Below are positions 7,144 to 55,214 of a stretch of DNA of 55,310 nt, piece after piece. The position numbers and the translations under genes were made by a program. Origin of the DNA: Anaerolineae bacterium. GTDB lineage: Bacteria; Chloroflexota; Anaerolineae; B4-G1; DUEL01. Location of the stretch: NCBI GenBank assembly GCA_049972045.1, contig JBMFKS010000005.1:4202-59511 (forward strand), written 5' to 3'. Under the pieces are notes generated by a model. It saw only the letters and a program-made list of their open reading frames with translations. It ran no database searches and was not told the DNA's origin. Numbering within the stretch: position 1 is the stretch's first letter; the number at the start of each line of letters is the position of its first letter.

Positions 7144-7172
7144 GCCCTGGGACAGCGCATCGGTGCAGGGTG

Positions 7173-7502
7173 ATGGAAGAGCCCCCTGTAGAGGCACTGA
7201 TTGCCGAGACGGTCCGCCGGATTGTGGAGATTCTCCATCCCCAGCGGGTGATCCTTTTCGGCAGCCGGGCGCGGGGCGAGGCGCGGCCAGATAGCGACAT
7301 AGACCTGCTGGTCATTGCCCGCTCTTCTGAGCCGCGCTACTGCCGGGCCGTCCCCCTCTATGGGGCCCTGAGCGACATCCCGATCGCGATGGACATCATC
7401 GTCTATACGCCAGAAGAGGTGGAAGAGTGGAGCGGCGTCCGTCAGGCCTTCGTCACCACCGCCCTCCGGGAGGGAATCGTCCTGTATGAAGACCGTGGCT
7501 GA
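7173..7502 (+). CDS. Minimal nucleotidyltransferase (MNT/MntA-like)
   Basis: ILFGSRARGEARPDSDIDLLVI; start reassigned to ATG 7173. Confidence 0.9.
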   Translation: MEEPPVEALIAETVRRIVEILHPQRVILFGSRARGEARPDSDIDLLVIARSSEPRYCRAVPLYGALSDIPIAMDIIVYTPEEVEEWSGVRQAFVTTALREGIVLYEDRG

Positions 7503-7905
7503 CCTGGTACGCGGATGGCTCCGCAAGGCGGGGAGCGACCTGACTAGCGCCGAACTCTGTCTGGAGGCCGGGCGGGCACTGGATATGGTCTGCTTTCACG
7601 CCCAGCAGGCCGCCGAGAAGTGCCTGAAGGCCTACCTGACGGCTTACGGGATGGATTTTCCTTTCGTGCACAACCTGGAGAAACTGATAGAATTGTGTGC
7701 CCGGCGGGACCCGGCGTTTCGCGCCATCCAGCCCCTGGGCCAGCAACTGACGCCGTACGCCGTCTCCCTCCGGTATGACCCTGAGTTCTGGCCGGAGATA
7801 GATGTGGCGGAACGTGCCCTGCATGCGGCGCTGACGATTCGGAAATTCGTTGTGGAACGCTTGCCAGCGGAGATGAAACCCGAAGAAGAGGCGATGAAAG
7901 GTTAA
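7486..7905 (+). CDS. HEPN domain protein
   Basis: WLRKAGSDL..A, CFHAQQAAEKCLKAYL, HNLEKL, YAVSLRY; overlaps the MNT gene. Confidence 0.9.
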   Translation: MKTVADLVRGWLRKAGSDLTSAELCLEAGRALDMVCFHAQQAAEKCLKAYLTAYGMDFPFVHNLEKLIELCARRDPAFRAIQPLGQQLTPYAVSLRYDPEFWPEIDVAERALHAALTIRKFVVERLPAEMKPEEEAMKG

Positions 7906-7914
7906 GGAGGAAGT

Positions 7915-10200
7915 ATGTCCCGTTATATTGCCACCCGAGCCATTCGCGGGGCCAATGCTATCGTCGCCGAGGCAGAGGCCATGCTGCAGAAAGCCCTCGC
8001 CGAGAAGGGGCCTGATACCCCCATCGCGTTTACCAATACCGCCTACTACCTGCCTGTGATCTACGGCATGCTGGCTCATCCCGTCAGCAAGATCGGGGAC
8101 CTGGTTCCCGTCATAGAGCACGCCAAGAGCCTGCTTCACCCCCCGCCGGATGAGAAATGGTGGGTCCCCTATCTGGGGGAGACGCTGGACTGCGGGATGG
8201 CGACGCTCCTGGCCTGCGAGGCGATTGAGGGCATCCGCTTCGCCTACGGCGAGCAGCCGGAACGATACCCCGGCTTCCGGATGACCGGCGGCGCGTCCTT
8301 CACCAGCCCAGAATTTGAGAAAGAGGAGGGGGGCGGTGGCTATCTGAACGGCCCCATTGACGACATCCAGTTGCGCTCTTGGGGCATCCAGTTGGTGGAT
8401 GGCCGGATGCCGGGTTTTGCGGCCATCGTCGGCGCGGCGCACAACAACCGGGCCGCCGTCGCCATCGTCCGCGAACTCCAGCGGCGCAACATTCTGGTCT
8501 TCCTCTCCGGCAACGTCAACGGTCGCTCCATCATTGACCAGTTGCACGAGGAGGGCGTGGAGATGGGCTACGATACCTACATCGTCCCCTTCGGTCGAGA
8601 CACCATCTCCGCTATCTACGCCCTGGGCTTCGCCACCCGCTCCGCCCTCACCTTCGGCGGCCTCAAGCCGGGCCAGTGGCGGGAGATTCTCCTCTACAAC
8701 AAATACCGCGTCTTCGCCTTCGTCTTGGCTCTGGGCGAGGTGGACGACCTGAAATACGCCGCCGCGGCCGGCGCCATCTCCTACGGCTTCCCCGTCATCG
8801 CCGATACTGTCATCCCCCAGATTCTCCCCACCGGTATCACCAGGTACGAGCACGTCATCTCCATGCCATGGAACGAGATTGAGGGGGAGACGGAGGAAGA
8901 AAAGGCAGCTCGGCTGGTCCAGAAGTGCATTGAGGTCCGCGGCGTCAAGGTGAAAATCACCGAGGTGCCCATCCCTGTCCCCTACGGCTCCGCCTTTGAG
9001 GGGGAGGTCGTCCGCAAGGCCGACATGCGGGTGGAGTTCGGCGGCCGCCACAGCCGCGCCTTTGAGTACCTCCGCATGGTGCCGATGGACCAGGTGGAGG
9101 ACGGCAAGATAGAGGTCATCGGCCCCGGCTTTGAGGATGTGCCCGTCGGTGGGGCAATGGACCTGGGCATCCTGGTGGAGGTCGCCGGGCGGAAGATGCA
9201 GGAGGACTTTGAGCCGGTGCTGGAGCGCCAGATTCACTACTTCATCAACGGCGCCTCCGGCGTCCAGCACATCGGTCAGCGGGACATCGCCTGGATCCGC
9301 ATCAGCAAGGCAGCCGCGGAGAAGGGTTTCAACCTGCGCCACTTCGGCGACATCCTCTACGCTCGCTTCCATGCCGACTTCGGTGCCATCGTGGACAAGG
9401 TCCAGGTGAAAATCATCACCGACCCGGCGCTCCACGCGGAATGGCTGCAGAAGGCGCGCGAAGCCTACGACCGCCGCAACCGGCGCCTGGCGGACCTGAC
9501 CGACGAGGCGGTGGACACCTTCTACTCCTGCATCCTCTGCCAGTCCTTTGCCCCTACTCACTGCTGCGTCATCAGCCCCCAGCGGCTGGGCCTCTGCGGC
9601 GCCTACAACTGGCTGGATTGCAAGGCATCTTACGAGATCAATCCCACCGGCCCCAACCAGCCTATCCCCAAAGGGCAGTGCCTGGACCCGGTGAAGGGCT
9701 ACTTCACCGGTGTCAACGAGTATGTCCGCATGGCCTCTCAGGGGACCGTGGACCAGGTGGCGATGTACTCCATCATGGAGAACCCGATGACGGCCTGCGG
9801 TTGCTTTGAGTGCATCGTCATGGTCATCCCCGAGGCCAACGGCGTGATGGTCGTCAGCCGGGAGGACCCCAGCATGACCCCCGCCGGGATGACTTTCTCC
9901 ACGCTGGCCGGCATGGCCGGCGGCGGCCTGCAGACCCCCGGTGTGATGGGTGTCGGCAAGTACTACCTGACCAGCCCCAAGTTCCTCTCCGCCGATGGCG
10001 GCTTCAAGCGGGTGGTCTGGATGTCCTCTTTCCTCAAGCAGACGATGGCTGAAGAGTTGAAGGCGGTCTGCGAGCGGGAGGGCGACCCGGACCTGCTGGA
10101 TAAGATTGCCGATGAGACCATCTGCACCGATGTGGAGGGGTTGCTGGCCTATCTGACGGAGAAAGAGCATCCGGCGCTGAGCATGCCGCCGATCTTCTAA
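7915..10200 (+). CDS. acsB: Acetyl-CoA synthase (bacterial type)
   Basis: NTAYYLP, CILCQSFAPTH, RLGLCGAYNWLDC, PMTACGCFEC (A-cluster ligands). Confidence 0.98.
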   Translation: MSRYIATRAIRGANAIVAEAEAMLQKALAEKGPDTPIAFTNTAYYLPVIYGMLAHPVSKIGDLVPVIEHAKSLLHPPPDEKWWVPYLGETLDCGMATLLACEAIEGIRFAYGEQPERYPGFRMTGGASFTSPEFEKEEGGGGYLNGPIDDIQLRSWGIQLVDGRMPGFAAIVGAAHNNRAAVAIVRELQRRNILVFLSGNVNGRSIIDQLHEEGVEMGYDTYIVPFGRDTISAIYALGFATRSALTFGGLKPGQWREILLYNKYRVFAFVLALGEVDDLKYAAAAGAISYGFPVIADTVIPQILPTGITRYEHVISMPWNEIEGETEEEKAARLVQKCIEVRGVKVKITEVPIPVPYGSAFEGEVVRKADMRVEFGGRHSRAFEYLRMVPMDQVEDGKIEVIGPGFEDVPVGGAMDLGILVEVAGRKMQEDFEPVLERQIHYFINGASGVQHIGQRDIAWIRISKAAAEKGFNLRHFGDILYARFHADFGAIVDKVQVKIITDPALHAEWLQKAREAYDRRNRRLADLTDEAVDTFYSCILCQSFAPTHCCVISPQRLGLCGAYNWLDCKASYEINPTGPNQPIPKGQCLDPVKGYFTGVNEYVRMASQGTVDQVAMYSIMENPMTACGCFECIVMVIPEANGVMVVSREDPSMTPAGMTFSTLAGMAGGGLQTPGVMGVGKYYLTSPKFLSADGGFKRVVWMSSFLKQTMAEELKAVCEREGDPDLLDKIADETICTDVEGLLAYLTEKEHPALSMPPIF

Positions 10201-10203
10201 TCG

Positions 10204-10234
10204 GGTGCCAGGCACTTTGAGAGTGCCTGGCACC
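10204..10234. repeat. REP-like palindrome GTGCCAGGCAC, copy 1
   Basis: GGTGCCAGGCACT-TTGAG-AGTGCCTGGCACC; second copy at 28927-28962. Confidence 0.8.
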
Positions 10235-10259
10235 TGTTGTTGATGAAACCTTGCTCCGG

Positions 10260-10305
10260 CGGCAGGGGGGCCGCCGTCAGCGATGGCGGTGGCCCCCTTT
10301 TGCCG
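10260..10305 (+). terminator. Long GC hairpin with a short U-run after acsB
   Basis: GGGGGCCGCCGTC-AGC-GATGGCGGTGGCCCCC-TTTT. Confidence 0.5.
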
Positions 10306-10399
10306 AAAGGGGAAGCACCACTTGGGGCCCGCCGAATCATCCTGCAGGATGGCCTTTCCAGGCCGATGGTGCTCACATTTGGGGGGTTTGAAAAATGTA

Positions 10400-10700
10400 G
10401 CGCAGACCGCCCCAGCGCCGCCCCGAGTGCCAGCGAGGGGCGTTGCGCCGAGCACCAGCGAGGAGGCCTGCTGCTCGTAGTGCGGCACGGAACGAAGTGA
10501 AGTGCCGCTTCCGGCGCCACTCCGCTGCGCCCTCGGGCCGAAGGGCCCTCGGCCCAAGGCCTCGGCGCGAGCGCCCTCGGCGCGTGGCGCTGCGTGGCTG
10601 ACTACGAGCGCACTCAACCTGTTCGTAGTGCGGCGCCGAGCACCAGCGAGGGGCTGCAGGCTAACCGCCTGCGCCACGGCTAACCGCCTGCCTCACGGAG
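10400..10700. repeat. Mosaic of direct and inverted repeats
   Basis: CCGAGYRCCAGCGAGG x3, TCGTAGTGCGGC x2, GCTAACCGCCTGC x2, several CCTCGG units, inverted GCTCGTAGT/ACTACGAGC. Confidence 0.65.
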
Positions 10701-10719
10701 AAGCTGGTGCCACCCTGGC

Positions 10720-10748
10720 TTGACATTCAGGTCAGGTAGGAGTATCTT
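10720..10748 (+). promoter_or_regulatory. Internal sigma70-like promoter upstream of acsD
   Basis: TTGACA-N17-TATCTT. Confidence 0.65.
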
Positions 10749-10794
10749 TTGGGCAGATATTTCTGAGTCTTCAGGCCACGCAAGGAGGTCCTAT

Positions 10795-11757
10795 ATGCCG
10801 GTAGAAATTCCTGTGGAACAATGGCCCGGTCGGGTCATAGAAGAGACCATCGGGGCCACTCCGGCGGAGGGGGGCACCCGCAGCCGGGTGGTGAAAGTCG
10901 GTGGTGAAAGCACACTCCCCTTTATGTTCTCCGACGGCGAGATACCCAATCCGCCCCGGATCGCCATTGAGATCCTGGATCAGCGGCCGAAGGATTGGTC
11001 CCCCCTACTGCTGGAAGCCTGGGGCGACGTGGTGGACGACCCAGCGCGGTGGGCGAAGGCCGCCGAGGAGGCCGGGGCCGACCTGGTCCTCCTCCAGTTG
11101 TCTCTCACCCGCGATGGCGGCAAGCCCACCACCGCCGCCGACGCGCGGGCGCTGACCCGCGCCGTCCTCCAGGCCACAGGGCTCCCCATCTTAGTCTTCG
11201 GCCCCGGCCAGGTGGACGCCGACAACGAACTGCTGGTGGCGGTAGCCGAAGAAGCGGCGGGCGAGCGCATCGTCCTGGGCATTTGCGAGGAGAAGAACTA
11301 CCGCACCATTGTCGCCGCCGCGCTGGCCAACGGCCACCTGGTCAACGGCCGGACCGCGATGGACGTCAACCTGGCCAAACAACTGAACATCCTCATCGCC
11401 GATATGGGCTTGCCGCTGGACCACATTATTATGGACCCAACGACGGCCAGCCTGGGGTACGGCATTGAGTACGGCTACTCGGTGATGGAGCGGTTGCGCC
11501 TGGCTGCCCTCCAGGGGGACAAGATGACCCAACTCCCCATGCTGGTCACTCCGGGTTTTGAGGCCTGGCGGCAGAAAGAGGCCAAAGTCGGCGAGGGCGT
11601 GCCCGCGTCTTGGGGCGACTGGCGCCAGCGGGCGATCCTCTGGGAGACCCTGACGGCGACCAACCTGATCCTCTCCGGCGCCGACATCGTCGTCCTGCGC
11701 CACCCGGAGACCGTGAAGCGGGTCCGGGCTTTCATTGAGCGGCTGATGGCGAAATAG
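10795..11757 (+). CDS. acsD: Corrinoid Fe-S protein small subunit
   Basis: IGATPAEGGTR, VGGESTLPF, DVNLAKQLN, MDPTTASLGYGIEY, MERLRLAALQGDKMTQLP; AAGGAGG RBS. Confidence 0.96.
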   Translation: MPVEIPVEQWPGRVIEETIGATPAEGGTRSRVVKVGGESTLPFMFSDGEIPNPPRIAIEILDQRPKDWSPLLLEAWGDVVDDPARWAKAAEEAGADLVLLQLSLTRDGGKPTTAADARALTRAVLQATGLPILVFGPGQVDADNELLVAVAEEAAGERIVLGICEEKNYRTIVAAALANGHLVNGRTAMDVNLAKQLNILIADMGLPLDHIIMDPTTASLGYGIEYGYSVMERLRLAALQGDKMTQLPMLVTPGFEAWRQKEAKVGEGVPASWGDWRQRAILWETLTATNLILSGADIVVLRHPETVKRVRAFIERLMAK

Positions 11758-11797
11758 CGCCGGAGGGATCCGGGATTGATCCGGCAAGGAGGCAGAT

Positions 11798-13147
11798 ATG
11801 GCACTCACGGGCTTGCAAATTTACAAGTTACTCCCGCAAACGAACTGCAAAGAATGCGGGTTCCCCACCTGCCTGGCCTTTGCGATGAAACTGGCGGCCA
11901 AGCAGGCTGAACTCTCCGCCTGTCCCTACGTCTCCGAGGAGGCGAAGGCCCAACTGGACGCCGCCGCTGCGCCGCCTATCCGTCTGGTCTCCGTGGAGGG
12001 GCCCGGACACAAGGTGGAGGTGGGCAACGAGACGGTCATCTTCCGCCACGAGAAGACTTTCTATCACCCGCCGGGCCTCTTCCTGCGGGTGAAGGACGCC
12101 TGGCCCGTGGAGCAGGTGAAGGGCACGGCGAAGGAGGCGATGGATTACACCGTCACCTACGTGGGGATGAACTTGCACCTGGACGGCGTGGCAGTGGAGG
12201 CCGCTTCCGGCAGCCCGGAGACCTTCGTGGCGGCGGTGAAGGCGGTGCGGGAGGTGACCGACCGTCCCCTCATTCTGATGGCCTCGGATCCGGCGGTCCT
12301 GAAGGCCGGGCTGGCCGCGGCCGACGGCACCCGCCCTCTCCTCTACGCCGCCACGGCGGAGAACTGGCAGGCGGTGGCGGAAGTCGCCAAAGCGGCTAAC
12401 GCCCCTGTCGCCGTCCGGGCCGATTCTCTGGATGGCCTGGCCGACCTGACCGAGAAGGTGAAAGGCGCCGGCATCCAGGACATCGTGCTGGACCCCGGCG
12501 TGCGCGATCCGGCCGGGACGCTGACCACGCTCACCCATCTGCGCCGCCTGGCGCTGAAGAAGAACTTCCGCCCGTTGGGCTTCCCCATCATCACCTTCCC
12601 CGGCGAGGGCGCGTCGGATATGATAGAGGAAGCGCAACTGGCGGCGGAGCACATTGCCAAGTACGCGGGCTTCATCATCCTGGACCGCTTCGCGCCGGAG
12701 ATGGTCTACGCGCTCCTGACCTGGCGGGTCAACGTCTACACCAACCCGCAGGAGCCCATCAAGGTCCAGCCGGGCATCTACGAGATCAACAACCCGACGG
12801 CCGACGCACCGGTGATGATCACCACCAACTTCTCCATCACCTACTTCTCCGTTGCCAATGAGGTGGACGGGAGCGGCATGCCGGGCTGGCTGCTGGTGGC
12901 GGACGCGGAGGGGATGAGCGTCCTCACCGCCTGGGCGGCGGGCAAGTTTGACGCCGAGAAGATCGCCAAGACGGTGAAAACCACCGGCATTGAGGAGAAG
13001 ATCAACCACCGCAAACTCATCATCCCTGGCGCAGTCGCTGTCCTGATGGGCGAGGTGGAGGAGGAACTGCCGGGCTGGCAGATTCTGGTGGGCCCGCGAG
13101 AGGCAGTGGACCTGCCCGGGTATCTGAAGTTGTGGAAGTCGTTCTGA
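11798..13147 (+). CDS. acsC: Corrinoid Fe-S protein large subunit
   Basis: LPQTNCKECGFPTCLAFA, FRHEKTF, TTNFSITYF, SVLTAWAAGKF, VGPREA. Confidence 0.97.
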   Translation: MALTGLQIYKLLPQTNCKECGFPTCLAFAMKLAAKQAELSACPYVSEEAKAQLDAAAAPPIRLVSVEGPGHKVEVGNETVIFRHEKTFYHPPGLFLRVKDAWPVEQVKGTAKEAMDYTVTYVGMNLHLDGVAVEAASGSPETFVAAVKAVREVTDRPLILMASDPAVLKAGLAAADGTRPLLYAATAENWQAVAEVAKAANAPVAVRADSLDGLADLTEKVKGAGIQDIVLDPGVRDPAGTLTTLTHLRRLALKKNFRPLGFPIITFPGEGASDMIEEAQLAAEHIAKYAGFIILDRFAPEMVYALLTWRVNVYTNPQEPIKVQPGIYEINNPTADAPVMITTNFSITYFSVANEVDGSGMPGWLLVADAEGMSVLTAWAAGKFDAEKIAKTVKTTGIEEKINHRKLIIPGAVAVLMGEVEEELPGWQILVGPREAVDLPGYLKLWKSF

Positions 13148-13156
13148 TGGAGAGAC

Positions 13157-13189
13157 GGGGGTTGCGGCGGCCCGGCCGCCGCAACCCTC
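13157..13189 (+). terminator. Hairpin after acsC (no U-tract)
   Basis: GGGGGTTGCGGCGGC-CCG-GCCGCCGCAACCCTC. Confidence 0.45.
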
Positions 13190-13284
13190 ATCTCCCCGAC
13201 CGTGATACCACGCCTGGGCCTTCGCGAAATCCTGGCCTTTGACCGCCATTTTGAGCCGATGCCGGGGGTGATTCGCTTGCCGTT
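13190..13284 (+). pseudogene. C-terminal remnant of a PIN/VapC gene
   Basis: Manual translation ISPTVIPRLGLREILAFDRHFEPMPGVIRLP resembles VapC C-termini; no start or N-terminal part. Confidence 0.6.
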
Positions 13285-13716
13285 GTGGGGAGCGGAGGAG
13301 CGGAGGAGCAGGGGAGCGGAGGGGTAAGGATAATTCAGGGGCATCGGGAATTGGAAGTGTATCGGCTGGCGTTTGATGCCGCGATGCGAATTTTCGCCGT
13401 CCCAAAGGTTTTTCCGCGGGAGGAGACCTACTCTCTGGTGGATCAGATTCGTCGGTCGTCCCGGTCCGTCTGTGCGAATATCGCGGAGGCATGGCGGAAG
13501 CGCCGGTACCAGGCGGCCTTCATCAGTAAGCTGAGCGATGCGGAAGCGGAGGCGGCCGAAACACAGGTTGGGCTCCCGTTCTTCGTGGAATGTGGCTATC
13601 TGGCGCAGGAGGTCGGCCAGGAGTTGCATCGGGTCTACGACGATGTTATCGGCAAACTGGTCAATATGATCGCCCATCCCGCCCCGTGGCTGCTGTTCAG
13701 GAGGAGCACCCGATGA
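13285..13716 (+). CDS. Four-helix-bundle protein (23S rRNA IVP / TIGR02436-like); start uncertain
   Basis: HRELEVYRLAF...FPREETYSLVDQIRRSSRSVCANIAEAW...FISKL...EAAETQV. Confidence 0.9.
   Translation: MGSGGAEEQGSGGVRIIQGHRELEVYRLAFDAAMRIFAVPKVFPREETYSLVDQIRRSSRSVCANIAEAWRKRRYQAAFISKLSDAEAEAAETQVGLPFFVECGYLAQEVGQELHRVYDDVIGKLVNMIAHPAPWLLFRRSTR
13287..13325. repeat. 8-mer array (GGAGCRGR), left flank of the four-helix-bundle gene
   Basis: GGGAGCGGAGGAGCGGAGGAGCAGGGGAGCGGAGGGG; roughly complementary to 13721-13760. Confidence 0.7.
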
Positions 13717-15662
13717 GGCTCACCTCTGTCCCCGCGCACCCCGGCACCTCTGCCCCCGCAGTCGCTGTCGTCTTCCGTCCTGCCGAGAAACGGGTAGAGG
13801 TTCCGCCGGGCACCCTGCTCAGCGAGGCGGCCCGCCAAGCCGGGGTGGACATCCTGATGCCCTGCGGCGGGCAGGGGCGCTGCGGCCGCTGCGCGATAGT
13901 GGTGGAATCCGGCTCCGTCCGCCGCCGCTCCACCCAGCGCCTCACGCCGGACGACATCGCCGCCGGGTACGCGCTGGCCTGCCAGACCGTGGTGGAGAGC
14001 GACGTCGTCGTCTTCGTCCCGCCCCAGGAGCGGATTGAGCGCCGTATCCAAGAGACCAAGCGCGCGGCAAAGATAGAACTCCCGTTCCCCTACGACCGCC
14101 ACGACCAGCCGCTGCGCAAGTTCGCCGTCACCCTGGAACCCCCCTCCCTGGCCGACCAGACCGACGACTGGTCCCGGCTCCAGCGGGAGATGGCCCGCCG
14201 CTACGGGATCCGGGACCTCCAGGCATCGCTCCCTGTCCTGCGGAAACTCCCCCGCGCCCTGCGAGAGGGAAACTGGACGGTCACCACGGTGGTGGAAATG
14301 GATGCGTGGGACCGTCCGGAGGGGCCGCCACGGCTGATAGACGTCCTGCCGGGAGAGCATCTGGAGAGCCTCTGGGCCGTGGCCATTGACATCGGCACCA
14401 CCAGCAACGTCGTCTGGTTGGTGGACCTGATGCAGGGGCGGGTGATGGCCCAGGCCGCCGACTACAACGGTCAGATCGCCCGTGGGGAGGACGTCATCTC
14501 CCGCATCATCTACGCCTCTAAGGGGAACGGCCTGCAGGAACTCCAGGAACTGGTGATGAGCACGCTGAACCGGCTCATCGCCCAGGTGGCTGCGGAGCAG
14601 AACATCCGCCCGGACGAAATCTACAAGGCGACCGTTGCCGGCAACACCACGATGATCCACCTCTTCGCAGGCATCCCGCCGGAGTCCATTCGGCTGATGC
14701 CCTTCATCCCGGTGGTCAACCACGTGCCCACCTTCCCCGCCCGGGAGGTCGGCCTGGGGATCCACCCGGAGGGGACGGTGGACTGTCTGCCCGGCATCGC
14801 CTCCTACGTGGGCGCGGACATCACCGCCGGGGTGCTCAGTTCCGGCCTCTGCGACTCGGACGAATTGACGCTCTTCATAGACGTGGGCACCAACGGGGAG
14901 ATGGTGCTGGGGGATTGCTCCTGGCTGATCTCCTGCGCCTGCTCCGCCGGTCCGGCCTTTGAGGGCGCAGGGGTCGTCCACGGGATGCGCGCGACCGCGG
15001 GGGCGATTGAGGAGGTCTGGATCCACCCCCAGACCTACGAGGCGGCCTACAAGGTCATCGGCGACGAGCGGCCCCGGGGCATCTGCGGCTCCGGCCTGAT
15101 CACGCTCCTGGCGGAGATGTTCGTCAACGGGGTGGTGGATAAAAGCGGGAACATCAACCTGGACCTGCCCACGAAGCGGGTGCGGCGGGGGGAGCACGGG
15201 CCGGAGTACGTCGTCGCCTGGGCGGATGAGACGGCGACGGGCCGCGATATCGTCATCACCGCGGTGGACATAGACAACCTGATGCGGGCCAAGGCGGCCA
15301 TTTACGCCGGATTCTCCGTCCTGGCCCGAAGCGTTGGCCTGAGCCTGCAGGATGTTCAGCGGGTGCTCATCGGCGGCGCGTTCGGCCAGTACATCAACGT
15401 GGAGAAGGCCATTCAGATCGGCATGCTCCCGGACATGCCCTACGATCGCTTCCATTTCCTGGGCAACACCTCAGTGCGGGGGGCGTACTATGCGCTGGCT
15501 TCCCGCGAGATGCGCCGCCGAGTGACCGAGGTAGGCCGGATGATGACCTACCTGGAACTCTCGGCCGACAATACGTTCTTTGACGAGTTCAACGCGGCCC
15601 TCTTCCTGCCGCACACCGACCTGAGCCAGTTCCCGTCGGTGGCGGCGCTGGTGGAGGAATAA
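13713..15662 (+). CDS. acsV: ASKHA-type reductive activator of corrinoid protein (RACo/AcsV)
   Basis: 2Fe-2S motif CGGQGRCGRC...LACQ; AIDIGTT, GEDVISRI, FIDVGTNGE, CSAGPAFEG, GICGSG; ATGA overlap with the upstream gene. Confidence 0.93.
   Translation: MRLTSVPAHPGTSAPAVAVVFRPAEKRVEVPPGTLLSEAARQAGVDILMPCGGQGRCGRCAIVVESGSVRRRSTQRLTPDDIAAGYALACQTVVESDVVVFVPPQERIERRIQETKRAAKIELPFPYDRHDQPLRKFAVTLEPPSLADQTDDWSRLQREMARRYGIRDLQASLPVLRKLPRALREGNWTVTTVVEMDAWDRPEGPPRLIDVLPGEHLESLWAVAIDIGTTSNVVWLVDLMQGRVMAQAADYNGQIARGEDVISRIIYASKGNGLQELQELVMSTLNRLIAQVAAEQNIRPDEIYKATVAGNTTMIHLFAGIPPESIRLMPFIPVVNHVPTFPAREVGLGIHPEGTVDCLPGIASYVGADITAGVLSSGLCDSDELTLFIDVGTNGEMVLGDCSWLISCACSAGPAFEGAGVVHGMRATAGAIEEVWIHPQTYEAAYKVIGDERPRGICGSGLITLLAEMFVNGVVDKSGNINLDLPTKRVRRGEHGPEYVVAWADETATGRDIVITAVDIDNLMRAKAAIYAGFSVLARSVGLSLQDVQRVLIGGAFGQYINVEKAIQIGMLPDMPYDRFHFLGNTSVRGAYYALASREMRRRVTEVGRMMTYLELSADNTFFDEFNAALFLPHTDLSQFPSVAALVEE
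13721..13760. repeat. 8-mer array (CACCTCTG type), right flank, inside the start of acsV
   Basis: CACCTCTG TCCCCGCG CACCCCGG CACCTCTG CCCCCGCA. Confidence 0.6.
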
Positions 15663-15666
15663 TTCG

Positions 15667-16068
15667 GTGGACGTTGAACGGGTTGTCCAGTACTGGTTGA
15701 CAACTGCTGCCGACGATTGGACAGCCGCAGAGCACCTGTTGCAGAGCGGGGATTACCCCCACGCGCTGTTCTTTGCTCATCTCTATCTAGAAAAACTGCT
15801 GAAAGCGCTGATTGTTCGTTCTACCGGCGCGCATGCGCCGATCAGCCATCAACTGCGTTATCTGGCAGAGAAAGCAGGCCTGGAATTAAGTTCGGAACAG
15901 GAAGCGTTTCTGATACGGGTGACCGAATATGCTGTCCGGACCCGGTATCCGGATATGGCGTTACAGTTCAAGCGGCAGTGCACACGGGAGTTTTGTGCTG
16001 GGGAAATGGAGCAGGTCAGGGAGTTTGGGCGATGGATAGAGCAGAAGATCAGGTCCTGGAAATCGTAG
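15667..16068 (+). CDS. HEPN domain protein
   Basis: WLTTAADDW, ALFFAHLYLEKLLKAL, HQLRYLA, TRYPD. Confidence 0.88.
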   Translation: MDVERVVQYWLTTAADDWTAAEHLLQSGDYPHALFFAHLYLEKLLKALIVRSTGAHAPISHQLRYLAEKAGLELSSEQEAFLIRVTEYAVRTRYPDMALQFKRQCTREFCAGEMEQVREFGRWIEQKIRSWKS

Positions 16069-16349
16069 AGCATTTTCTGCGGGAGTTAGAGAAGGCGGGG
16101 ATCCGGCTGACAGCGGCCTATTTGTACGGGTCGTACGCCGGTGGTTCTGCACGCCCGGATAGCGATATAGACGTGGCGCTTGTTTCCGAAGATTTTACCG
16201 GTGACTGGCTGGAGGACCACCGGAGGATCCTTTCAGCCCTGCTACAGAGCGATTCGCGAATAGAACCGGTGCGCTTCCGCCCTGAGGAGTTCTGTAATGA
16301 GCACCCGCTGGCCTGGGAGATTCGGACGAAGGGGCGAAGATTGCGGTAA
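16032..16349 (+). CDS. Minimal nucleotidyltransferase (MNT)
   Basis: YLYGSYAGGSARPDSDIDVALVS; start reassigned to ATG 16032. Confidence 0.88.
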   Translation: MDRAEDQVLEIVEHFLRELEKAGIRLTAAYLYGSYAGGSARPDSDIDVALVSEDFTGDWLEDHRRILSALLQSDSRIEPVRFRPEEFCNEHPLAWEIRTKGRRLR

Positions 16350-16359
16350 GGAGGAATCG

Positions 16360-17145
16360 TTGACCGTTACCATCGCGCTGGCTGGAAAAGGAGGTACCGG
16401 AAAGACCACCGTCGCGGCCTGCCTCATCCGCTACTTGCTGGAGGAGCGGGGGGGCTCCGTGCTGGCCATTGACGCCGACCCGGCGATGAACCTGCCGCTG
16501 GTCCTGGGCATGGAGGTGGAGACCACCGTCGGCGACATCCGCGAGGATATGCTGGACCTGGTCCAGTCCAGCGGGGCGCTGGCGGGCTCCATGCCCGGCG
16601 GGATGAGCAAGCAGGACTACCTGGACTATCAGGTGAAGATGGCCCTGGTGGAGGGGGAGGAGGTGGACTTGCTGGCGATGGGGCGTCCGGAGGGGCCGGG
16701 CTGCTACTGCGCGGCCAACCAGATGCTCCGGCTCATCGTGGACCGGCTGAGTGCCAATTACGACTACGTGGTCATTGACAACGAGGCTGGGATGGAGCAC
16801 CTCAGCCGCCGCACCACCCGTGACGTGGACGTCCTTCTCCTGGTGACCGACCCGACCCAGCGGGGCGTCGCCGCCGCCAAAGAGATGGCGCGGATGGTCC
16901 CCGGGCTGGATATCCGGGTGGGGCGGGTCTATCTGGTGGTGAACCGGGTGCGGGACGGACTTCCGCCGCCGCTGGCGGAGGCCGTCGCCCGGACCGGCCT
17001 GGAACTGATCGGGACGGTGCCGGAGGACCCCGCGATGGCAGAGTTTGAGGTCAGCGGCCGCCCGCTGATCCAGTTGCCGTCGGAGACGGCGGTCTACCGG
17101 GCGGTACGGGAGATCGCGCGGAAGGTGCTGGGAGGGAAGGAATGA
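16360..17145 (+). CDS. cooC: CODH/ACS nickel-insertion ATPase (CooC/AcsF)
   Basis: GKGGTGKTT, IDADP, GPGCYC, DNEAGMEHLSR; TTG start after AAGGAGG. Confidence 0.95.
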   Translation: MTVTIALAGKGGTGKTTVAACLIRYLLEERGGSVLAIDADPAMNLPLVLGMEVETTVGDIREDMLDLVQSSGALAGSMPGGMSKQDYLDYQVKMALVEGEEVDLLAMGRPEGPGCYCAANQMLRLIVDRLSANYDYVVIDNEAGMEHLSRRTTRDVDVLLLVTDPTQRGVAAAKEMARMVPGLDIRVGRVYLVVNRVRDGLPPPLAEAVARTGLELIGTVPEDPAMAEFEVSGRPLIQLPSETAVYRAVREIARKVLGGKE

Positions 17146-19074: not shown

Positions 19075-19091
19075 AATCTTCGGAGGGAACT

Positions 19092-45572: not shown

Positions 45573-45585
45573 TATGAGGAGAGGT

Positions 45586-48698: not shown

Positions 48699-48980
48699 TT
48701 GAAGCCGATTCACTTTTCCCGACATGCCAGGCACCGGATGTATCTGCGCGGCGCAACAGAGCAGGAAGTTGTACAAACCATTCAAGGCGGCCTGTGGGAG
48801 CCAGCGCGGGGAGGAAAGTATCAGGCCCGCCGGACGTTTGTCTTCGGACAGCCGTCTCCGGTAGACCGGAAGATATATCCTTTCAAGACAGTACACGCCA
48901 TTTTTGCTGAGGAAACGGATAGAATTGTTGTGGTGACGGTTCTGGTTTACTATGGAAATGTTGGAGAGGAGGAGAAATGA
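48699..48980 (+). CDS. DUF4258-like putative toxin
   Basis: IHFSRHARHRMYLRGATEQEV...IVVVTV. Confidence 0.8.
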   Translation: MKPIHFSRHARHRMYLRGATEQEVVQTIQGGLWEPARGGKYQARRTFVFGQPSPVDRKIYPFKTVHAIFAEETDRIVVVTVLVYYGNVGEEEK

Positions 48981-49225
48981 GGATTTATTACGATGCAGAG
49001 GTGGATGCGTTGTATGTGCAGTTTCGCTCTTTGGAGCCGGGTATGGCGCAGGCGCGGCCGTTGAGCGACCAGATTATCGCGGACTATGACCCTGAGGGGC
49101 GGCTCGTCGGGCTGGAGATTCTGGATGTCAGCGAGTTGCTGGGAGAGGAGCGAGGCCGGCTGATGCTGGAGATCGCGCCGGCTCTGGTGTCCCGCGTGCC
49201 GGAAAGCGCGGGGTTCAAACTCTGA
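48977..49225 (+). CDS. DUF2283-family protein
   Basis: MRIYYDAEVDALYVQF...IADYDPEGRLVGLEILDVS. Confidence 0.88.
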   Translation: MRIYYDAEVDALYVQFRSLEPGMAQARPLSDQIIADYDPEGRLVGLEILDVSELLGEERGRLMLEIAPALVSRVPESAGFKL

Positions 49226-49305: not shown

Positions 49306-49743
49306 ATGGAGACCGGAGGGAACGGGCACGAGGAGTTCGTGCCGGAGATTGTGGCGTTCACCTGCATCTACTGCGGCTATATGGCGGCGGATACCGCCGG
49401 CGCGCTGCGGCTGAAGTACCCGTCCAACGTCCGGCTGGTGCGGCTCCCCTGCACCGGCAAGGCCGACGTCCGCTATATCCTGGAGGCCTTTGAGAAGGGC
49501 GCGGACGGGGTCTACATCGTCGCCTGCCCGCTGGGAAACTGCCACCATGTGCACGGCAACGAGCGCGCGCTGGCGCGGGTGAAGTACGCCAAGGCGCTGC
49601 TGGACAAAATCGGCATCGGGGGGGACCGGCTGGACATCGTTTTCGTCTCCGGCGGCATGGGTGCTACCTTCGCCGAGGCGGCGCGAAGGATGACGGAGAG
49701 GGTGAGGGAGTTGGGGCCGAGTCCGTTAAAAATGAACAATTAA
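49306..49743 (+). CDS. mvhD: MvhD-family 2Fe-2S subunit
   Basis: FTCIYC.Y.AADTAG, PCTG, GADGV..ACPLGNCHH. Confidence 0.93.
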   Translation: METGGNGHEEFVPEIVAFTCIYCGYMAADTAGALRLKYPSNVRLVRLPCTGKADVRYILEAFEKGADGVYIVACPLGNCHHVHGNERALARVKYAKALLDKIGIGGDRLDIVFVSGGMGATFAEAARRMTERVRELGPSPLKMNN

Positions 49744-49757
49744 CAATTAAAAATTAA
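49726..49757. repeat. AT-rich 7-mer array, left flank of the four-helix gene
   Basis: TTAAAAA TGAACAA TTAACAA TTAAAAA TTAA; contains the mvhD stop. Confidence 0.9.
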
Positions 49758-49767
49758 GGGGAGGTGG

Positions 49768-50244
49768 ATGACGCGCGGGGAGGTCCCGGCGGGGAAGAGG
49801 GAGACCCGGGACACAGTCCGGGCGGCTCCGGTTACCCGACCAGCGGAGCGGAGGCGCGACTGGCGGCTGGAGGGGAATCAGGGGCTGGATATTCAAGAGC
49901 GAGCGTTTCAATTCGCGGTGCGGGTAGTGAAACTGGTCAATCGGTTGCCCCGGACGATTGCCGGGATAGAAGTAGGCCGACAGTTGGTCCGCTCGGCGAC
50001 GTCGGTGGGGGCAAACTTGGAGGAGGCCGACGCGGCGGAGTCCAAAGCCGATTTTATTCACCAGGTGGGGATCGCCCACAAAGAGGCCCGGGAGGCTCGC
50101 TATTGGCTCCGCATCGTCCGCGCATCGCTGCTGGATGACGGGGAGGTCGTCTGGCTGCTTCGGGAAAGCGATGAGTTAGTTCGCATTCTCAACTCCATCA
50201 TCTCCAACGCCCGCAGGAGCCCGCGCAGCAAGGTCGGCCGCTAA
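49768..50244 (+). CDS. Four-helix-bundle protein (start uncertain)
   Basis: DIQERAFQFAVRVV...QLVRSATSVGANLEEA..AESKADFIH...KEAREARYWL. Confidence 0.92.
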   Translation: MTRGEVPAGKRETRDTVRAAPVTRPAERRRDWRLEGNQGLDIQERAFQFAVRVVKLVNRLPRTIAGIEVGRQLVRSATSVGANLEEADAAESKADFIHQVGIAHKEAREARYWLRIVRASLLDDGEVVWLLRESDELVRILNSIISNARRSPRSKVGR

Positions 50245-50249
50245 CTTCC

Positions 50250-50283
50250 ATTGTTAATTGTTAATTTCTTAATTGTTCATTCT
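50250..50283. repeat. AT-rich 7-mer array, right flank (complementary to 49726-49757)
   Basis: ATTGTTA ATTGTTA ATTTCTTA ATTGTTC ATT. Confidence 0.9.
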
Positions 50284-53200: not shown

Positions 53201-54786
53201 ATACTTGCTCCCAGGACTCCATCCGGCGGATTGTTGAACGGGTGCAGGAATTGAATCTGAACCGGGTCGTCGTGGCGGCCTGCACGCCGCTGACGCATGA
53301 GCCGCTTTTCCAGGAGGCCATCCGGCAGGCGGGACTCAACCCGTATCTTTTTGAGATGGCCAACATCCGCAACCAGTGTTCGTGGGTCCACCAAAACGAC
53401 TGGGAAGGGGCAACGAAGAAGGCGAAGGACCTGGTGCGGATGGCGGTAGCGAAGGCGGCCCGGCTGGAGCCGCTCTACCGGACGCGCGTGCCGGTCCAGA
53501 AGGCCGCGCTGGTCATCGGCGGCGGCGCGGCGGGGCTGAACGCCGCACTGACCCTGGCCCGTCAGGGCTTCCCGGTCCATCTGGTGGAGCGGTCGGACCG
53601 GCTGGGGGGGCACCTGCTCCATCTGCGCCACTCGCTCCAGGAGGCGACAGGGGACGGGGAGCGGATGTGGCTGGACCCCCAGGCGTACGCCCGCGCGCTG
53701 GTGGGGCGGGTGGCCGCGGAGCCGCTGATCACCGTCCACCTGAACACGGAGGTCCTGGAGACCAGCGGCTTCGTGGGGCAGTACGTCTCCCGGCTGCGGG
53801 GGCCGCAGGGGGAGTTGGAGGTCTGCCACGGCGTGACGATTGTGGCCGTCGGCGGGGTAGAGTACCGGGGGCCGGAGTATGGCTACGGGACGGACCCGCG
53901 CATTCTCACTCAGCAGGAGTTTGAGGAGCGGCTGGGGGAGGGGCGGGACCTGCCCGATTCGGTGGTGATGATCCAGTGCGTGGGGCCGGCAGAGCGATAC
54001 TGCTCCCGCATCTGCTGCACGACGGCCCTGAAGAACGCGCTGATGCTGAAGCGGCACAAGCCGCAAGCCCGGGTGACGGTCATTTACCGGGACATCCGGA
54101 CTTTCGGGTTCAAGGAGCGCACCTACCAGGAGGCCCGCCGGGCCGGGGTGATATTTATCCGGTATGACTTTGACCGCAAGCCCGAGGTAAAGATTGCGGA
54201 TTCCAGGCTGCAGGTGCGGGTGTGGGAGCCGGTGCTGGGGGAGGAGTTGGTGCTGGAGCCGGACCTGGTGGTGCTGAGCATGCCGGTGGTGCCGTCACCG
54301 GGGGCGCGGGAGTTGGCGGCGCGGCTGAAGTTGCCGGTGGACCTGGACGGGTTCTTCCTGGAGGCGCATGTCAAACTGCGGCCGGTGGATTTCGCCACCG
54401 ACGGCTTCTTCTTGGCGGGGATGGCCCACTACCCGAAGTTCCTGGGGGAGGCGATCGCCCAGGCCCAGGCGGCCGCGGCCCGCGCGGCGACGGTTCTGGG
54501 CCGGGACTATCTGGAGGTGGGTGGCGTCGTCGCGCAGGTGGACGCGGAGAAGTGCGTCGGCTGCCTGACCTGTGTGCGGATTTGCCCGTACCGGGTGCCG
54601 CACATCCGCGCGGACCTGGTTGGGGTGGGGGGCATCGTCGGCGCGGCCTACATTGAGCCGGCTCAGTGCCACGGCTGCGGCATTTGCGTGGGCGAGTGCC
54701 CGGCGAAGGCCATCCAGTTGCTCCACTACCGGGACGTGGAGATGGAGGCGAAGATAGAGGCGCTGGAGGAACTCGTGGGGGTATGA
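50299..54786 (+). CDS. HdrL-type fusion: two HdrA modules with an inserted GltD/NfnB-like NAD(P)H-flavin domain
   Basis: DKTFPTNDCAMC; insert APCRDACP..CGRICNHRCEDAC, GAGPCG, GAGDVAMD..YRR, FAAGD, EAARCLAC; second HdrA module and terminal ferredoxin. Confidence 0.92.
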   Translation: MSGHSNGVVGSVLVVGGGIAGVQAALDLAEAGFKVYLVEQKSAIGGHMAQLDKTFPTNDCAMCILSPKLVEAGRHRNIELLVDTEVLSVDGDAGRFTVRLRKKPRYIDLDKCTGCGECNRVCPVIIPDRFNAGLGVQRAAYKLYPQAVPNAYAIEKRGIAPCRDACPTGQRAQGYIALIREGRYEDALRVIKEDNPFPGICGRICNHRCEDACNRGKLDEPINIRALKRFVTDKVYEKPRVPPEPAPRRYPQRVAVIGAGPCGLTAAQDLRKMGYGVTVFEALPVAGGMLRVGVPEYRLPSWIVDREVQDIVDLGVELRLNHPVNNLDEVFAEGFDAILIAVGAHEGLRLNIPGADLEGVLINTHFLRDVRLGKPPKLGKVVAVIGAGDVAMDVARTARRMGAEVHVYYRRTREEATADPEEMERAEEEGVVFHWQVTPVEIVGDGGRRVVGMKCVRTEPGLPDETGRRRPVIVPDSEHFVPCDNVIFSVGQRAGLAFIPESVGIGVTDQGTIAVNPNTLATSRPGVFAAGDVATGTAFVIEAVAAGHRAAQAIHRYLQGMDPEPPPKPRLPVVDLSRAEIEERVARGEVTVQPRVPMDTLPVERRLSTFEEVVAGYTDEQAQMEAARCLACGICSECRLCERVCQAGAVDHDMVEQTLELEVGAVLLAPGFATFDAEKAGEYGWGRYPNVVTSLQFERLLNASGPTLGHVQRPSDGKTPRRIAFIQCVGSRDQKHDYCSSVCCVYAIKEAMMAIEHEPDTEVTIFLMDMRAFSKGYLDFYHRAKERYGIRFVECRVSAVKEDPKSRNLVIRYVDDRNGRGIREEEFDLVVLSVGMEVPESVRDLARRVGVATDAYGFCQTVPFAPLQTSRPGVFAIGPFREPKDIPESVVEASAAAGLAGALLASARWTQTAPEVYPLERDVTQEPLRIGVFVCQCGSNIAGFLDVPAVAEYAATLPGVVHAEYNLYTCSQDSIRRIVERVQELNLNRVVVAACTPLTHEPLFQEAIRQAGLNPYLFEMANIRNQCSWVHQNDWEGATKKAKDLVRMAVAKAARLEPLYRTRVPVQKAALVIGGGAAGLNAALTLARQGFPVHLVERSDRLGGHLLHLRHSLQEATGDGERMWLDPQAYARALVGRVAAEPLITVHLNTEVLETSGFVGQYVSRLRGPQGELEVCHGVTIVAVGGVEYRGPEYGYGTDPRILTQQEFEERLGEGRDLPDSVVMIQCVGPAERYCSRICCTTALKNALMLKRHKPQARVTVIYRDIRTFGFKERTYQEARRAGVIFIRYDFDRKPEVKIADSRLQVRVWEPVLGEELVLEPDLVVLSMPVVPSPGARELAARLKLPVDLDGFFLEAHVKLRPVDFATDGFFLAGMAHYPKFLGEAIAQAQAAAARAATVLGRDYLEVGGVVAQVDAEKCVGCLTCVRICPYRVPHIRADLVGVGGIVGAAYIEPAQCHGCGICVGECPAKAIQLLHYRDVEMEAKIEALEELVGV

Positions 54787-54972
54787 TGGGGGTTGCAGAA
54801 ACATATGTCGTTATAGAGATTGGGGAATCGTTAAAAATAGCTGGAGAGCTCACACTTTACGCTTACGATGCCTATCTGATTCGTCGGAGAAATACCGTTC
54901 GCCCTTATTGACGCTGGACAGAGGTTTGGCAGTTGCGGCCCAACGAAGGGGAATAGAAGTGTGGAGTGTATA
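54783..54972 (+). pseudogene. Frameshifted PIN/VapC C-terminal remnant
   Basis: SLKIAGELTLYAYDAYLI and PLLTLDRGLAVAAQRRGIEV lie in different frames. Confidence 0.7.
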
Positions 54973-54983
54973 GGGGGTGCAGA

Positions 54984-55214
54984 ATGGAAGTTTATACTTG
55001 CACTCAGGCAAGACAGCGGCTGGCCGAGTTGCTGGAACGGGCGGAGGCGGAAGGCGAGGTCCGCATTAAACGCCGGGACGGGCGTGTATTTGTGGTCCGG
55101 CCGGAGCGGCGGAAGGGGTCGCCGCTGGATGTGAAGGGGTTGGATTTGGGGATAACTGCGGAGGAGATTCTGGAATCCATCCGGGAGGGGCGGGAGCGGC
55201 CGGTGTTCGGCTGA
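54984..55214 (+). CDS. Phd/YefM-family antitoxin
   Basis: YTCTQARQRLAELLERA..EGEVRIKRRDG. Confidence 0.85.
   Translation: MEVYTCTQARQRLAELLERAEAEGEVRIKRRDGRVFVVRPERRKGSPLDVKGLDLGITAEEILESIREGRERPVFG

Follow-up and report, generated by a model that had tools for sequence, protein, structure and literature searches.

Small-gene modules and hairpin cassettes fill most gene junctions of a Wood-Ljungdahl/Hdr cluster in an Anaerolineae bacterium

We analyzed a 55,310-nucleotide (nt) stretch of DNA, hereafter the window (C5:4202-59511), from a metagenome-assembled genome (MAG) of an Anaerolineae bacterium (3.34 Mb, 300 contigs, 64% G+C). Core genes were called by Pfam and NCBIfam scans together with a gene map based on G+C content at third codon positions (GC3). 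This gave 26 core genes, all on the + strand, from CODH (starting at 5149) to a GltD/HdrA fusion of 1495 amino acids (aa; ending at 54786). The Wood-Ljungdahl genes CODH, AcsB, AcsD, AcsC, RACo, CooC, AcsE and FolD (5149-19979, +; Pfam and translations) are followed by Hdr/Mvh-type redox genes (20626-54786, +; Pfam), namely HdrC/B, an aminotransferase, five HdrA-like genes, GNAT, HdrCB, two MvhD genes, two Fer4 genes, an FAD flavoprotein and the GltD/HdrA fusion. FTHFS and then a small HMA protein lie ahead of CODH on the + strand. The core gene order is the same in 19 related loci of the same genus, family and order, and the aminotransferase and GNAT were therefore counted as core; in the Hdr/Mvh-type part, the order persists throughout the genus and, in part, outside it. 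The gaps between the core genes contain 29 small genes grouped in 18 modules, among them toxin–antitoxin (TA) modules and hairpin-flanked cassettes, and it is this cargo of the junctions that we describe here.

For comparison, we mapped all core genes in 12 congeners (AcsB 93-98% identical; the genome under study is G000) and measured each junction covered by contigs, coverage differing between genomes. Foreign cargo might in principle have been stitched into the cluster during assembly or binning, as the source is a MAG with contig breaks at repeats. However, the stretch is present almost whole in two hot-spring metagenome runs. Two DNA runs, produced by different studies in different years, yielded contigs that span core, cargo and core again with 0-5 differences per piece; the metagenome contigs are interrupted only at high-copy repeats, and orthologous cargo occupies the same junctions in several congeners. 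Because contigs of two separate runs bridge core, cargo and core, the cargo layout is no assembly artefact, and we give that explanation practically no weight.

On our own gene map, protein-coding cargo occupies 16 of the 25 internal junctions and the trailing one (17/26). Four further junctions hold non-coding elements: repeats between AcsB and AcsD, two hairpins without an open reading frame (ORF) and a DUF3800-III RNA motif. An earlier, sequence-only reading of this DNA had counted 17 of 29; the 17 was reproduced, and the denominator, which depends on the definition of the core, is 26 here. Pfam identified three MNT/HEPN pairs and one MNT-HEPN fusion, two HicBA pairs, MazF with an upstream partner, BrnT/BrnA, an antisense PIN pair, UPF0175 with a broken DUF3368, Phd, one GxxExxY gene, a DUF4258-DUF2283 pair, an orphan DUF2283, and a DUF6036/AbiEii-like nucleotidyltransferase (NTase) with a 75-aa partner; three four-helix-bundle genes (TIGR02436), one of them broken, complete the set. 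This inventory agrees with the earlier list, except that its two DUF4258-DUF2283 pairs are one pair and one orphan DUF2283. Adjacent small genes that include a known toxin domain were found for HEPN, HicA, PemK/MazF, BrnT and PIN, their partners being MNT, HicB-like, CopG/BrnA or unnamed; Phd, the DUF2283 gene at 42958 and DUF3368 are incomplete as TA units.

Several other statements of the sequence-only reading held as well. Cargo lies at gene boundaries only and breaks no core reading frame, though one HdrA gene (33335-34705) reads into a cassette arm. All modules but one, the PIN pair, are co-oriented with the core genes. The ATGA overlaps at 13713, 17142, 33335 and 34702 are present in the sequence, and a fifth, at 40342, exists in relatives but has been displaced here by a repetitive extragenic palindromic (REP)-like insert in the NTase end. 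Among the scanned ORFs of the window, those of the cassettes included, none gave a transposase or integrase domain. Three modules of this genome are decaying (IVP2, DUF3368 and the NTase 3′ end).

Along the Wood-Ljungdahl part, the modules lie on the + strand as follows. MNT1-HEPN1 fills the CODH–AcsB junction (7173-7905; Pfam NTP_transf_2, 5e-12; HEPN, 6e-25). Between AcsB and AcsD, the fill is non-coding (10202-10612): a hairpin of 16 bp that resembles a terminator (10202-10236), and copies of dispersed repeats (10394-10612), which gave 124 BLAST high-scoring pairs (HSPs) genome-wide and at which metagenome depth peaks. The four-helix-bundle gene IVP1 lies between AcsC and RACo (13285-13716; Pfam 23S_rRNA_IVP, 1e-25; TIGR02436), and its stop codon overlaps the RACo ATG (ATGA). 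HEPN2-MNT2 (15667-16349; Pfam), at the RACo–CooC junction, is also found in G004 and G006, with remnants in G002 and G011. At the same junction, loci L002 (8577-9485, −) and L014 (8760-9665, −) carry a 302-aa radical-SAM gene. HicB1-HicA1 (17142-17580; HicA, 3e-17) separates CooC from AcsE, the HicB1 ATG overlapping the CooC stop. The second four-helix-bundle gene, IVP2 (18603-19085; PF05635 and TIGR02436, at 18790), is split over two frames by a REP-like insert (18676-18769) and is intact in G006; a CCCTAAT array lies on its right side.

In the Hdr/Mvh-type part, UPF0175 and the broken, PIN-like DUF3368 gene (20009-20591, +; domain scans) lie between FolD and HdrC and are variable in relatives. 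HEPN3-MNT3 (23163-24058, +; domain scans), between the aminotransferase and HdrA, is present in G003 and not in G002. The HdrB–aminotransferase junction of L002 contains a TrkA-type channel gene (2090-3124, −). This gene and the radical-SAM gene are the two larger inserts seen in relatives; both are ordinary genes rather than cargo and have no counterpart in this genome. The ORF-less hairpins lie at HdrA–GNAT (25895-26040; tandem 8-mers of GACACGAA type; fold z-score −8.3) and HdrC2–HdrB2 (27225-27330; CAAGTAGG-type units; z −7.6). HicB2-HicA2 (28231-28733, +; HicA, 2e-12) at HdrB2–HdrA is followed by a 411-nt gap with a palindromic dispersed repeat (28915-29000; 84 HSPs; z −4.3). The fused MNT-HEPN gene (32400-33338, +; 312 aa; domain and overlap check), whose stop overlaps the next HdrA ATG, occurs in G006, G008 and G010 and as a remnant in G003, and is missing from G002 and G012.

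That HdrA gene is followed by the GxxExxY cassette (34634-35248, +; PD-(D/E)XK_3, Pfam 3e-39; TIGR04256), with an ORF at 34702-35094, a left arm (34634-34662) within the HdrA end and right arms at 35111-35248. The HdrA-like gene runs on through the left-arm region (34634-34705), so that its last ~20 codons derive from the cassette; in relatives whose site is empty, the alignment covers only 95-97% of this gene. The DUF3800-III RNA motif (36416-36512, −; Rfam, 71.8 bits) lies antisense between HdrCB and HdrA as the sole copy in the genome, with no DUF3800 gene nearby; this junction is of similar length in G003 and G005, 4-8 nt long in G002 and G012, and 1363 nt long in G006, where it holds a DUF433-DUF5615 pair. 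MazF and its 98-aa upstream partner (38260-38887, +; PemK, 2e-28) lie at HdrA–MvhD. The 75-aa gene and the NTase (39413-40283, +; domain scans) are missing from G002 and G011, and a REP-like insert (40150-40283) has altered the NTase 3′ end. BrnT-BrnA (42233-42779, +; domain scans) at Fer4–FAD flavoprotein and the orphan DUF2283 gene (42958-43251, +; domain scans), which is paired with DUF4258 in G001, are followed by the only antisense module, a VapC-like PIN gene and its partner (44896-45610, −; PIN, 2e-18). The DUF4258-DUF2283 pair (48699-49225, +; domain scans) is present in G005, partly so in G001, and missing from G002, G003 and G012. The four-helix-bundle cassette IVP3 (49731-50281, +; PF05635 and TIGR02436, ORF at 49768) has AACAATT-type inverted arms (49731-49757 and 50254-50281). 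A Phd/YefM-type antitoxin gene (54966-55214, +; domain scan) follows the last core gene, and the contig ends 96 nt further on.

The cargo forms two classes, ORF-only TA modules and hairpin cassettes. The sequence-only reading had left them unseparated and had missed the hairpin arms, which are the only mechanistic handle. In a hairpin cassette, inverted arrays of tandem 7-8-nt units enclose an ORF of the four-helix-bundle or GxxExxY type, and these units (ATCGCGN, GGATACAA, ATTGCAG/ATTCAAG, AACAATT, GACACGAA and others) vary among copies. Arm z-scores in the window were 9.2 for IVP3 and 15.8 for GxxExxY, and no TA module exceeded 2.8. The arms of IVP1 and IVP2 are degenerate only, as in the left array of IVP1 (GGAGCGGA repeated four times, 13288-13325), and the arm test gave no significant inverted arms for IVP1. 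Genome-wide, inverted arms flank 5/8 four-helix-bundle genes (z > 5), 4/5 GxxExxY genes, 2/70 TA modules and 1/129 control genes; both of the TA modules concerned adjoin hairpin arrays. The conserved unit of the TA modules runs from the first start codon to the last stop codon, and the arm test on the 70 modules revealed no terminal repeats for this class.

Predicted RNA folds pair the two arms into a stem closing the whole cassette (IVP3; GxxExxY, long-range stem z −6.0), and ORF-less versions, which occur widely, fold with z-scores of −7.6 to −11.9. The CODH–AcsB spacer is ≤60 nt in 51 of 77 measurable Anaerolineae species; among spacers of 61-300 nt, 15/23 have significant inverted arms, 12 of which are 7/8-nt periodic. 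This arm-based test replaced a first tandem-periodicity screen of the same spacers, which was too strict (3/26). The genome contains one RNase III gene.

Cassettes start 0-5 nt past a stop codon and end just before a ribosome-binding site (RBS). Such edges would suit a site-specific enzyme, be it GxxExxY itself or a recombinase or homing nuclease whose gene lies elsewhere, that inserts cargo at a junction signal in an integron- or homing-like manner; the same module type also occurs at the same junction in distant species, and one cassette class encodes a PD-(D/E)XK nuclease fold. However, the TA modules have no attC-like or other conserved ends, flanking inverted repeats being confined to the two modules mentioned above, and the arm sequences of the hairpin cassettes vary between copies. 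No target duplication was seen, no integrase was found in the window (the integron integrase was not searched for genome-wide), and the whole genome yielded only two weak partial matches to a Y1 transposase. We therefore regard insertion by such an enzyme as very unlikely.

Almost every junction differs in cargo among the 12 congeners; identical, static cargo across relatives was not what we found. The gain and loss of cassettes proposed by the sequence-only reading is borne out, in that cargo has been gained, lost and replaced among congeners and unrelated cargo occupies the same junction. Measured from the CODH stop to the point where the last core gene ends, the cluster spans 36,659 nt in the best-assembled genome, G002, versus 47,643 nt here (~11 kb more), and the G002 cluster is nearly bare, keeping remnants of IVP1 and HEPN2 only. 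The CODH–AcsB junction contains MNT-HEPN in G000, G009, G005 and G008 (MNT1-HEPN1 in all of them), a different four-helix-bundle cassette in G006 and G011, with a broken one in G008, and just 3-49 nt in G004, G012, G003, G002 and G007. Similarly, MazEF occupies HdrA–MvhD in G000 and G005, where G001 has a TumE pair, G008 a DUF4258 pair, and G002, G010 and G011 a hairpin of 61-63 nt. At FAD flavoprotein–HdrA, the antisense PIN pair is seen in G000, G005 and G006, a four-helix-bundle cassette in G001, G008, G010 and G012, and a scar in G003. Further junctions in congeners hold ParE, DUF433-DUF5615 and PIN pairs that this genome lacks, and every module is missing from some congener. On a nucleotide tree of CODH and AcsB, explaining the states of the CODH–AcsB junction takes two or more gains together with several losses or transfers.

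Across genomes, HEPN matches range from 4 to 22 and four-helix-bundle matches from 0 to 14, with 5 and 0, respectively, in the lean G002. Cargo load is a property of the whole genome. The hot spot is shared, because cluster contigs of several congeners hold 10-40% of their four-helix-bundle genes. Cassette load tracks assembly fragmentation: G002 has 30 contigs, and the genomes with up to 22 HEPN and 14 four-helix-bundle genes have 260-610. Polymorphic junctions and repeats probably break the assemblies.

This variation bears on the possibility that the cargo is domesticated, with the host keeping RNase toxins and RNase III hairpins to cut or tune the operon mRNA and so to set subunit ratios or shut the pathway down under stress. 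HEPN, HicA, MazF, BrnT and PIN are annotated as RNases on family knowledge, the predicted junction hairpins would segment the mRNA, and MNT1-HEPN1 has long been kept at one junction. However, no module is present in all congeners, the almost bare cluster of G002 goes with few HEPN and no four-helix-bundle genes in that genome, several modules are broken, the codon use of the cargo is foreign-like, and the same cargo types occur in unrelated operons. A control function of this kind seems doubtful to us.

Cargo also moves. A four-helix-bundle cassette at C6:49424 of this genome, consisting of ATCGCGN arms, RBS and ORF, is homologous to the cassette in the CODH–AcsB junctions of G006, G011 and G008. 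Identity across these three is 84-89% (aa) and 76-78% (nt), their junctions that correspond to the C6 locus measure 4, 15 and 273 nt, respectively, and homology stops at the outer arm edge, directly after the upstream stop codon. The HicBA1 lineage lies at CooC–AcsE here and in G009, and its relatives (77-85% aa identity) lie at the junction after the ortholog of C123:2093-3034, where G004, with a CooC–AcsE gap of 36 nt, has the intact module and G005 a remnant; a further HicA remnant sits at a third locus in G007. Here the homology extends from the HicB start codon to the HicA stop only, and the moved unit of a TA module is, as judged from these alignments, the bare ORFs. The order of BrnTA and DUF2283 is reversed in G001, G004 and G005. 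As one lineage of each class is found at different junctions in different species, both classes change junctions.

Residence can be long. MNT1-HEPN1 is also found at CODH–AcsB in two distant Anaerolineales, L076 and L087 (69-75% aa identity), with 67-72% nt identity versus 70-80% for the flanking genes. In L076 an ATCGCNN heptamer array precedes the module, and L089 and L116 have MNT/HEPN of another type there. In closer genera, the CODH–AcsB junction is compact and free of scars. Deletion is recorded in G006 and G011, which keep the last 10-30 nt of the HEPN gene as a scar after the four-helix-bundle cassette, in G003, which has an internally deleted cassette, and in G027, which has a collapsed arm pair. 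Homologous recombination of junction alleles was considered as a conceivable route of spread. At CODH–AcsB, alleles with cargo end in CGG-TAA, and those without it in AAG/AGG-TAA. However, flank identity over 150 nt and over 600-1500 nt does not group by cargo state, and no recombination tract was seen towards L076 or L087. The sequence comparisons point to long residence and repeated loss, with occasional arrivals and moves. Accordingly, of the boundary-targeted route put forward in the sequence-only reading, the boundary placement stands and the targeting stays hypothetical, as MNT1-HEPN1 in two distant species has diverged about as much as its flanks and long retention with losses explains part of the pattern.

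Cargo density in the cluster exceeds that of the rest of the genome. In a family-blind count of genes of ≤170 aa with GC3 ≤0.78, applied to window positions 7144-55310, 27 of 56 genes qualified, compared with 496 of 3051 elsewhere (odds ratio 4.8, p 4e-8), and the densest other 48-kb span contains 13 such genes. Elsewhere, 42 directons reach a size of ≥10 genes; together they have 21 modules for 532 non-cargo genes, and the window has 14 for ~32-38 (Fisher test on modules per gene, odds ratio ~11 with 32 window non-cargo genes and ~9 with 38). Operon length alone is therefore not the explanation. Median GC3 is 0.69 for cargo and 0.83 for other genes.

The pattern itself is not special to the energy cluster. 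Within directons, 12/13 modules are co-oriented in the window and 56/60 elsewhere, and all five antisense modules are PIN modules. Elsewhere in the genome, genes of the same kinds likewise lie co-oriented in short gaps between larger genes, and Pfam-checked cases include the nuo operon, the ribosomal spc operon, a molybdo-hydroxylase operon and a polysaccharide cluster. Cargo flanks secY on both sides in the spc operon (DUF2283, MNT; C2:66284-68139) and separates NuoH-like and NuoL-like genes in the nuo operon (MNT, PIN; C7:5306-7121). Co-oriented junction insertion is thus genome-wide, and the energy cluster is merely its densest site: density is higher here, and orientation is the same as elsewhere. 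A paralog of the FAD flavoprotein (38% identical) with a broken PIN module directly after it (C16:34297-36530) mirrors the neighbourhood in the window. A PIN-domain match (C5:2291-2680, −) in the 4.2 kb before the window lies among minus-strand genes and adjoins an acyl-CoA dehydrogenase gene.

Promoter and terminator scans gave totals no higher than in shuffled sequences, and we used individual sites only. A promoter-like site precedes the first cluster gene (1569-1596), and the antisense PIN pair has a strong one (45592-45564; 11/12 matches to the sigma-70 consensus, with TG). The sigma-70 consensus scan detected none before any co-oriented module. Together with the ATGA overlaps, this is weak evidence, from sequence signals, consistent with read-through expression and translational coupling. 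Near the start of the cluster, the 16-bp hairpin comes directly after the AcsB stop and a promoter-like site, TTGACA-17-TATCTT, precedes AcsD (10720-10748), so that the acs genes may form two transcription units. The AcsB–AcsD junction is long and variable across Anaerolineae (>200 nt in 27 of 58 measured).

We read the cargo as selfish passengers of two kinds that live in the stop-to-RBS spacers of operons throughout this lineage and probably accumulate most in this long, essential and probably strongly transcribed cluster, and think this account slightly likelier to be right than wrong. Small selfish genes would colonise the spacers of the Wood-Ljungdahl/Hdr super-operon between a stop codon and the next RBS, be transcribed by read-through and be translated by coupling to host genes, and RNase III would cut the hairpin stems and so segment the operon mRNA. 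They may pile up here owing to the length of the cluster, its probably strong and constant transcription, and the need for precise deletion if removal of a passenger is to be non-lethal. By analogy, the hairpin class probably acts like an rRNA intervening sequence (IVS) placed in mRNA.

A number of points weigh against this account. A genome-wide search with nine Pfam families (HEPN, PIN, 23S_rRNA_IVP, HicA, PDDEXK_3, NTP_transf_2, PemK, DUF2283 and ParE) placed 18 of 109 matches in the window, whose share of the genome is 1.65% (binomial p 3e-13), but this tenfold figure is biased upward, because eight of the nine families were picked for occurring in the window. The family-blind count is the more reliable measure, and without that bias the proportion is raised about 3-fold. 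In this genome, a gene whose two flanks lie on one strand shares that strand in 95% of cases; the co-orientation of cargo equals this baseline, is by itself no proof of dependence on host transcription, and speaks only against insertion in random orientation. Cargo-flanking genes have a GC3 of 0.860, versus 0.834 for others (p 5e-7), and somewhat higher codon bias, which may mark merely a native core region; high expression of the cluster is assumed. The sigma-70 consensus behind the promoter scan may not fit this phylum. In six RNA runs, all of them available as contigs without readable ends or strands, only 5-6% of sampled words were present, and two of the runs gave contigs from relatives with empty junctions, which skip the cargo (joining 7144 to 7913, among others) and so carry no information on cargo expression in this genome. 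No pair of cargo paralogs within the genome exceeds 61% aa identity, which gives no indication of recent copying inside it, unlike for the REP-like repeats. On its divergence, MNT1-HEPN1 looks old and retained, with many losses, rather than recently gained.

Several of these points would equally fit uniform insertion followed by selection that keeps only sense copies between stop codon and RBS, with an essential, packed operon acting as a shelter from deletion, and without any targeting or role of transcription. Such a null explanation accords with the absence of cargo within core frames, the baseline co-orientation, the retention of decayed cargo (IVP2, DUF3368 and NTase here, PIN in G005), an MNT1-HEPN1 as old as its flanks in distant species, and the lack of young paralogs. 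However, the other long directons, including the nuo and ribosomal ones, carry far fewer modules per gene than the window, a single junction has been colonised by at least three unrelated families within one genus, and the empty junctions of close relatives are compact and scar-free. As these junctions are so clean, removal of cargo is evidently possible. We consider uniform insertion with selective retention unlikely.

If selfish passengers are the right account, small selfish genes can have a main habitat in essential, conserved operons, besides islands, plasmids and integrons; in this lineage, no such site is denser than the central carbon-fixation cluster. Polymorphic junctions and repeats also fragment assemblies inside pathway genes that are used to infer metabolism. 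Should the RNases or hairpins act on host mRNA, they would constitute an unrecognised layer of control of the Wood-Ljungdahl pathway.

Among known systems, integron cassettes are promoterless, co-oriented small genes, often TA pairs, that are driven by an upstream promoter and gained or lost singly. The cargo resembles them in its small co-oriented genes, often TA pairs, gained and lost one by one. By contrast, it has no attC-like ends and is scattered between essential genes instead of being arrayed, and there is no space for an attC site where a module abuts or overlaps the next gene, as many do. No integrase domain was found in the ORFs of the window, and the whole genome was not searched for IntI. 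An integron route for the TA modules was rejected, given that no attC-like inverted repeats occur at module ends. Nor does the cargo look like insertion sequences or transposons: the window has no transposase domain, HicBA homology stops at the ATG and the stop codon, and arms are not conserved between lineages.

REP-like repeats and miniature inverted-repeat transposable elements (MITEs) provide a further comparison. A REP-like element of ~135 nt with the hairpin GTAGGGCAACTGC...GCAGTTGCCCTAC has copies at 1243-1422, 18676-18769 and 40150-40283, hundreds of BLAST HSPs and >100 similar copies genome-wide. Two copies lie within cargo genes (IVP2 and NTase), where contigs break and depth is ~1000. 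This element and other dispersed repeats are like REP/MITE-like repeats in their many near-identical copies and stable folds. Unlike the cargo, they form a separate, currently multiplying population that damages the cargo genes IVP2 and NTase. A REP-associated Y1 transposase was considered as the source of the repeats and dropped, the two weak partial matches in the genome being too little.

Cyanobacterial short tandemly repeated repetitive (STRR) sequences are short tandem heptamer repeats in intergenic regions. Together with the TAACTGA repeats of Beggiatoaceae (PMC4679880), they share with the cassettes 7-nt arrays between genes and a suspected post-transcriptional role. In our case, however, the arrays form inverted pairs that enclose an ORF and move with it as a unit.

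The closest precedent for the TA class is an MNT-HEPN module inserted in the lysine operon of Thermus thermophilus HB8 as compared with HB27 (Makarova, Wolf and Koonin 2009, PMC2701414). Both cases involve two small adjacent genes, the thermophile-rich MNT/HEPN type, presence or absence in a syntenic operon, and foreign-like composition. The HB8 insertion is a single case, whereas here 17/26 junctions of one cluster are filled and unrelated families recolonise the same junction; in addition, the conserved unit is the ORFs only, and co-oriented modules have no promoter-like sites. The mobility of TA modules, single MNT-HEPN operon insertions (PMC2701414) and rRNA intervening sequences with S23p ORFs are thus already known. 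Our literature search found no report of junction filling at such a scale in a core pathway or of cassette-filled Wood-Ljungdahl clusters, none of repeated colonisation of the same junctions or movement between junctions, and none of S23p/GxxExxY hairpin cassettes, including ORF-less forms, in operon junctions.

For the hairpin class, the nearest relative is the 23S rRNA IVS. In Coxiella (PMC4990558), its terminal inverted repeats form a stem that RNase III cuts; the loop contains an S23p ORF, beside which lie tandem heptamers (GACAGAT) in numbers that vary between strains. The 23S IVSs with S23p ORFs of Coxiella and Leptospira have no transposase, and the same source leaves their origin and mode of spread open. 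The cassettes share the S23p/four-helix-bundle ORF (PF05635 and TIGR02436 at 13285, 18790 and 49768), the terminal inverted repeats that in predicted folds form a long closing stem (IVP3, GxxExxY), the tandem 7-8-nt units beside the ORF, and the lack of a transposase. They differ in lying between protein genes of operons, with no copy in a 23S rRNA helix, and in having whole arms made of tandem units, the unit differing by copy, as well as GxxExxY and ORF-less forms. RNase III cutting is described for Coxiella, and its counterparts here are an RNase III gene and predicted stems. A tentative extension, which is possible though we would not expect it to be correct, is that hairpin cassettes and classical 23S rRNA intervening sequences are one mobile class. 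By this analogy, elements would enter after a stop codon or in an rRNA helix of highly transcribed units, without a transposase, by way of the hairpin and a helper ORF, the transcript would then be cut by RNase III, and TA modules would share the niche. If that were true, operon junctions of core metabolism would be a regular habitat of a so far overlooked mobilome. The same build as in the rRNA intervening sequence is present here in many copies, polymorphic and at different sites among close relatives, and the comparison of filled, empty and scarred sites offers a handle on what these intervening sequences are and how they spread.

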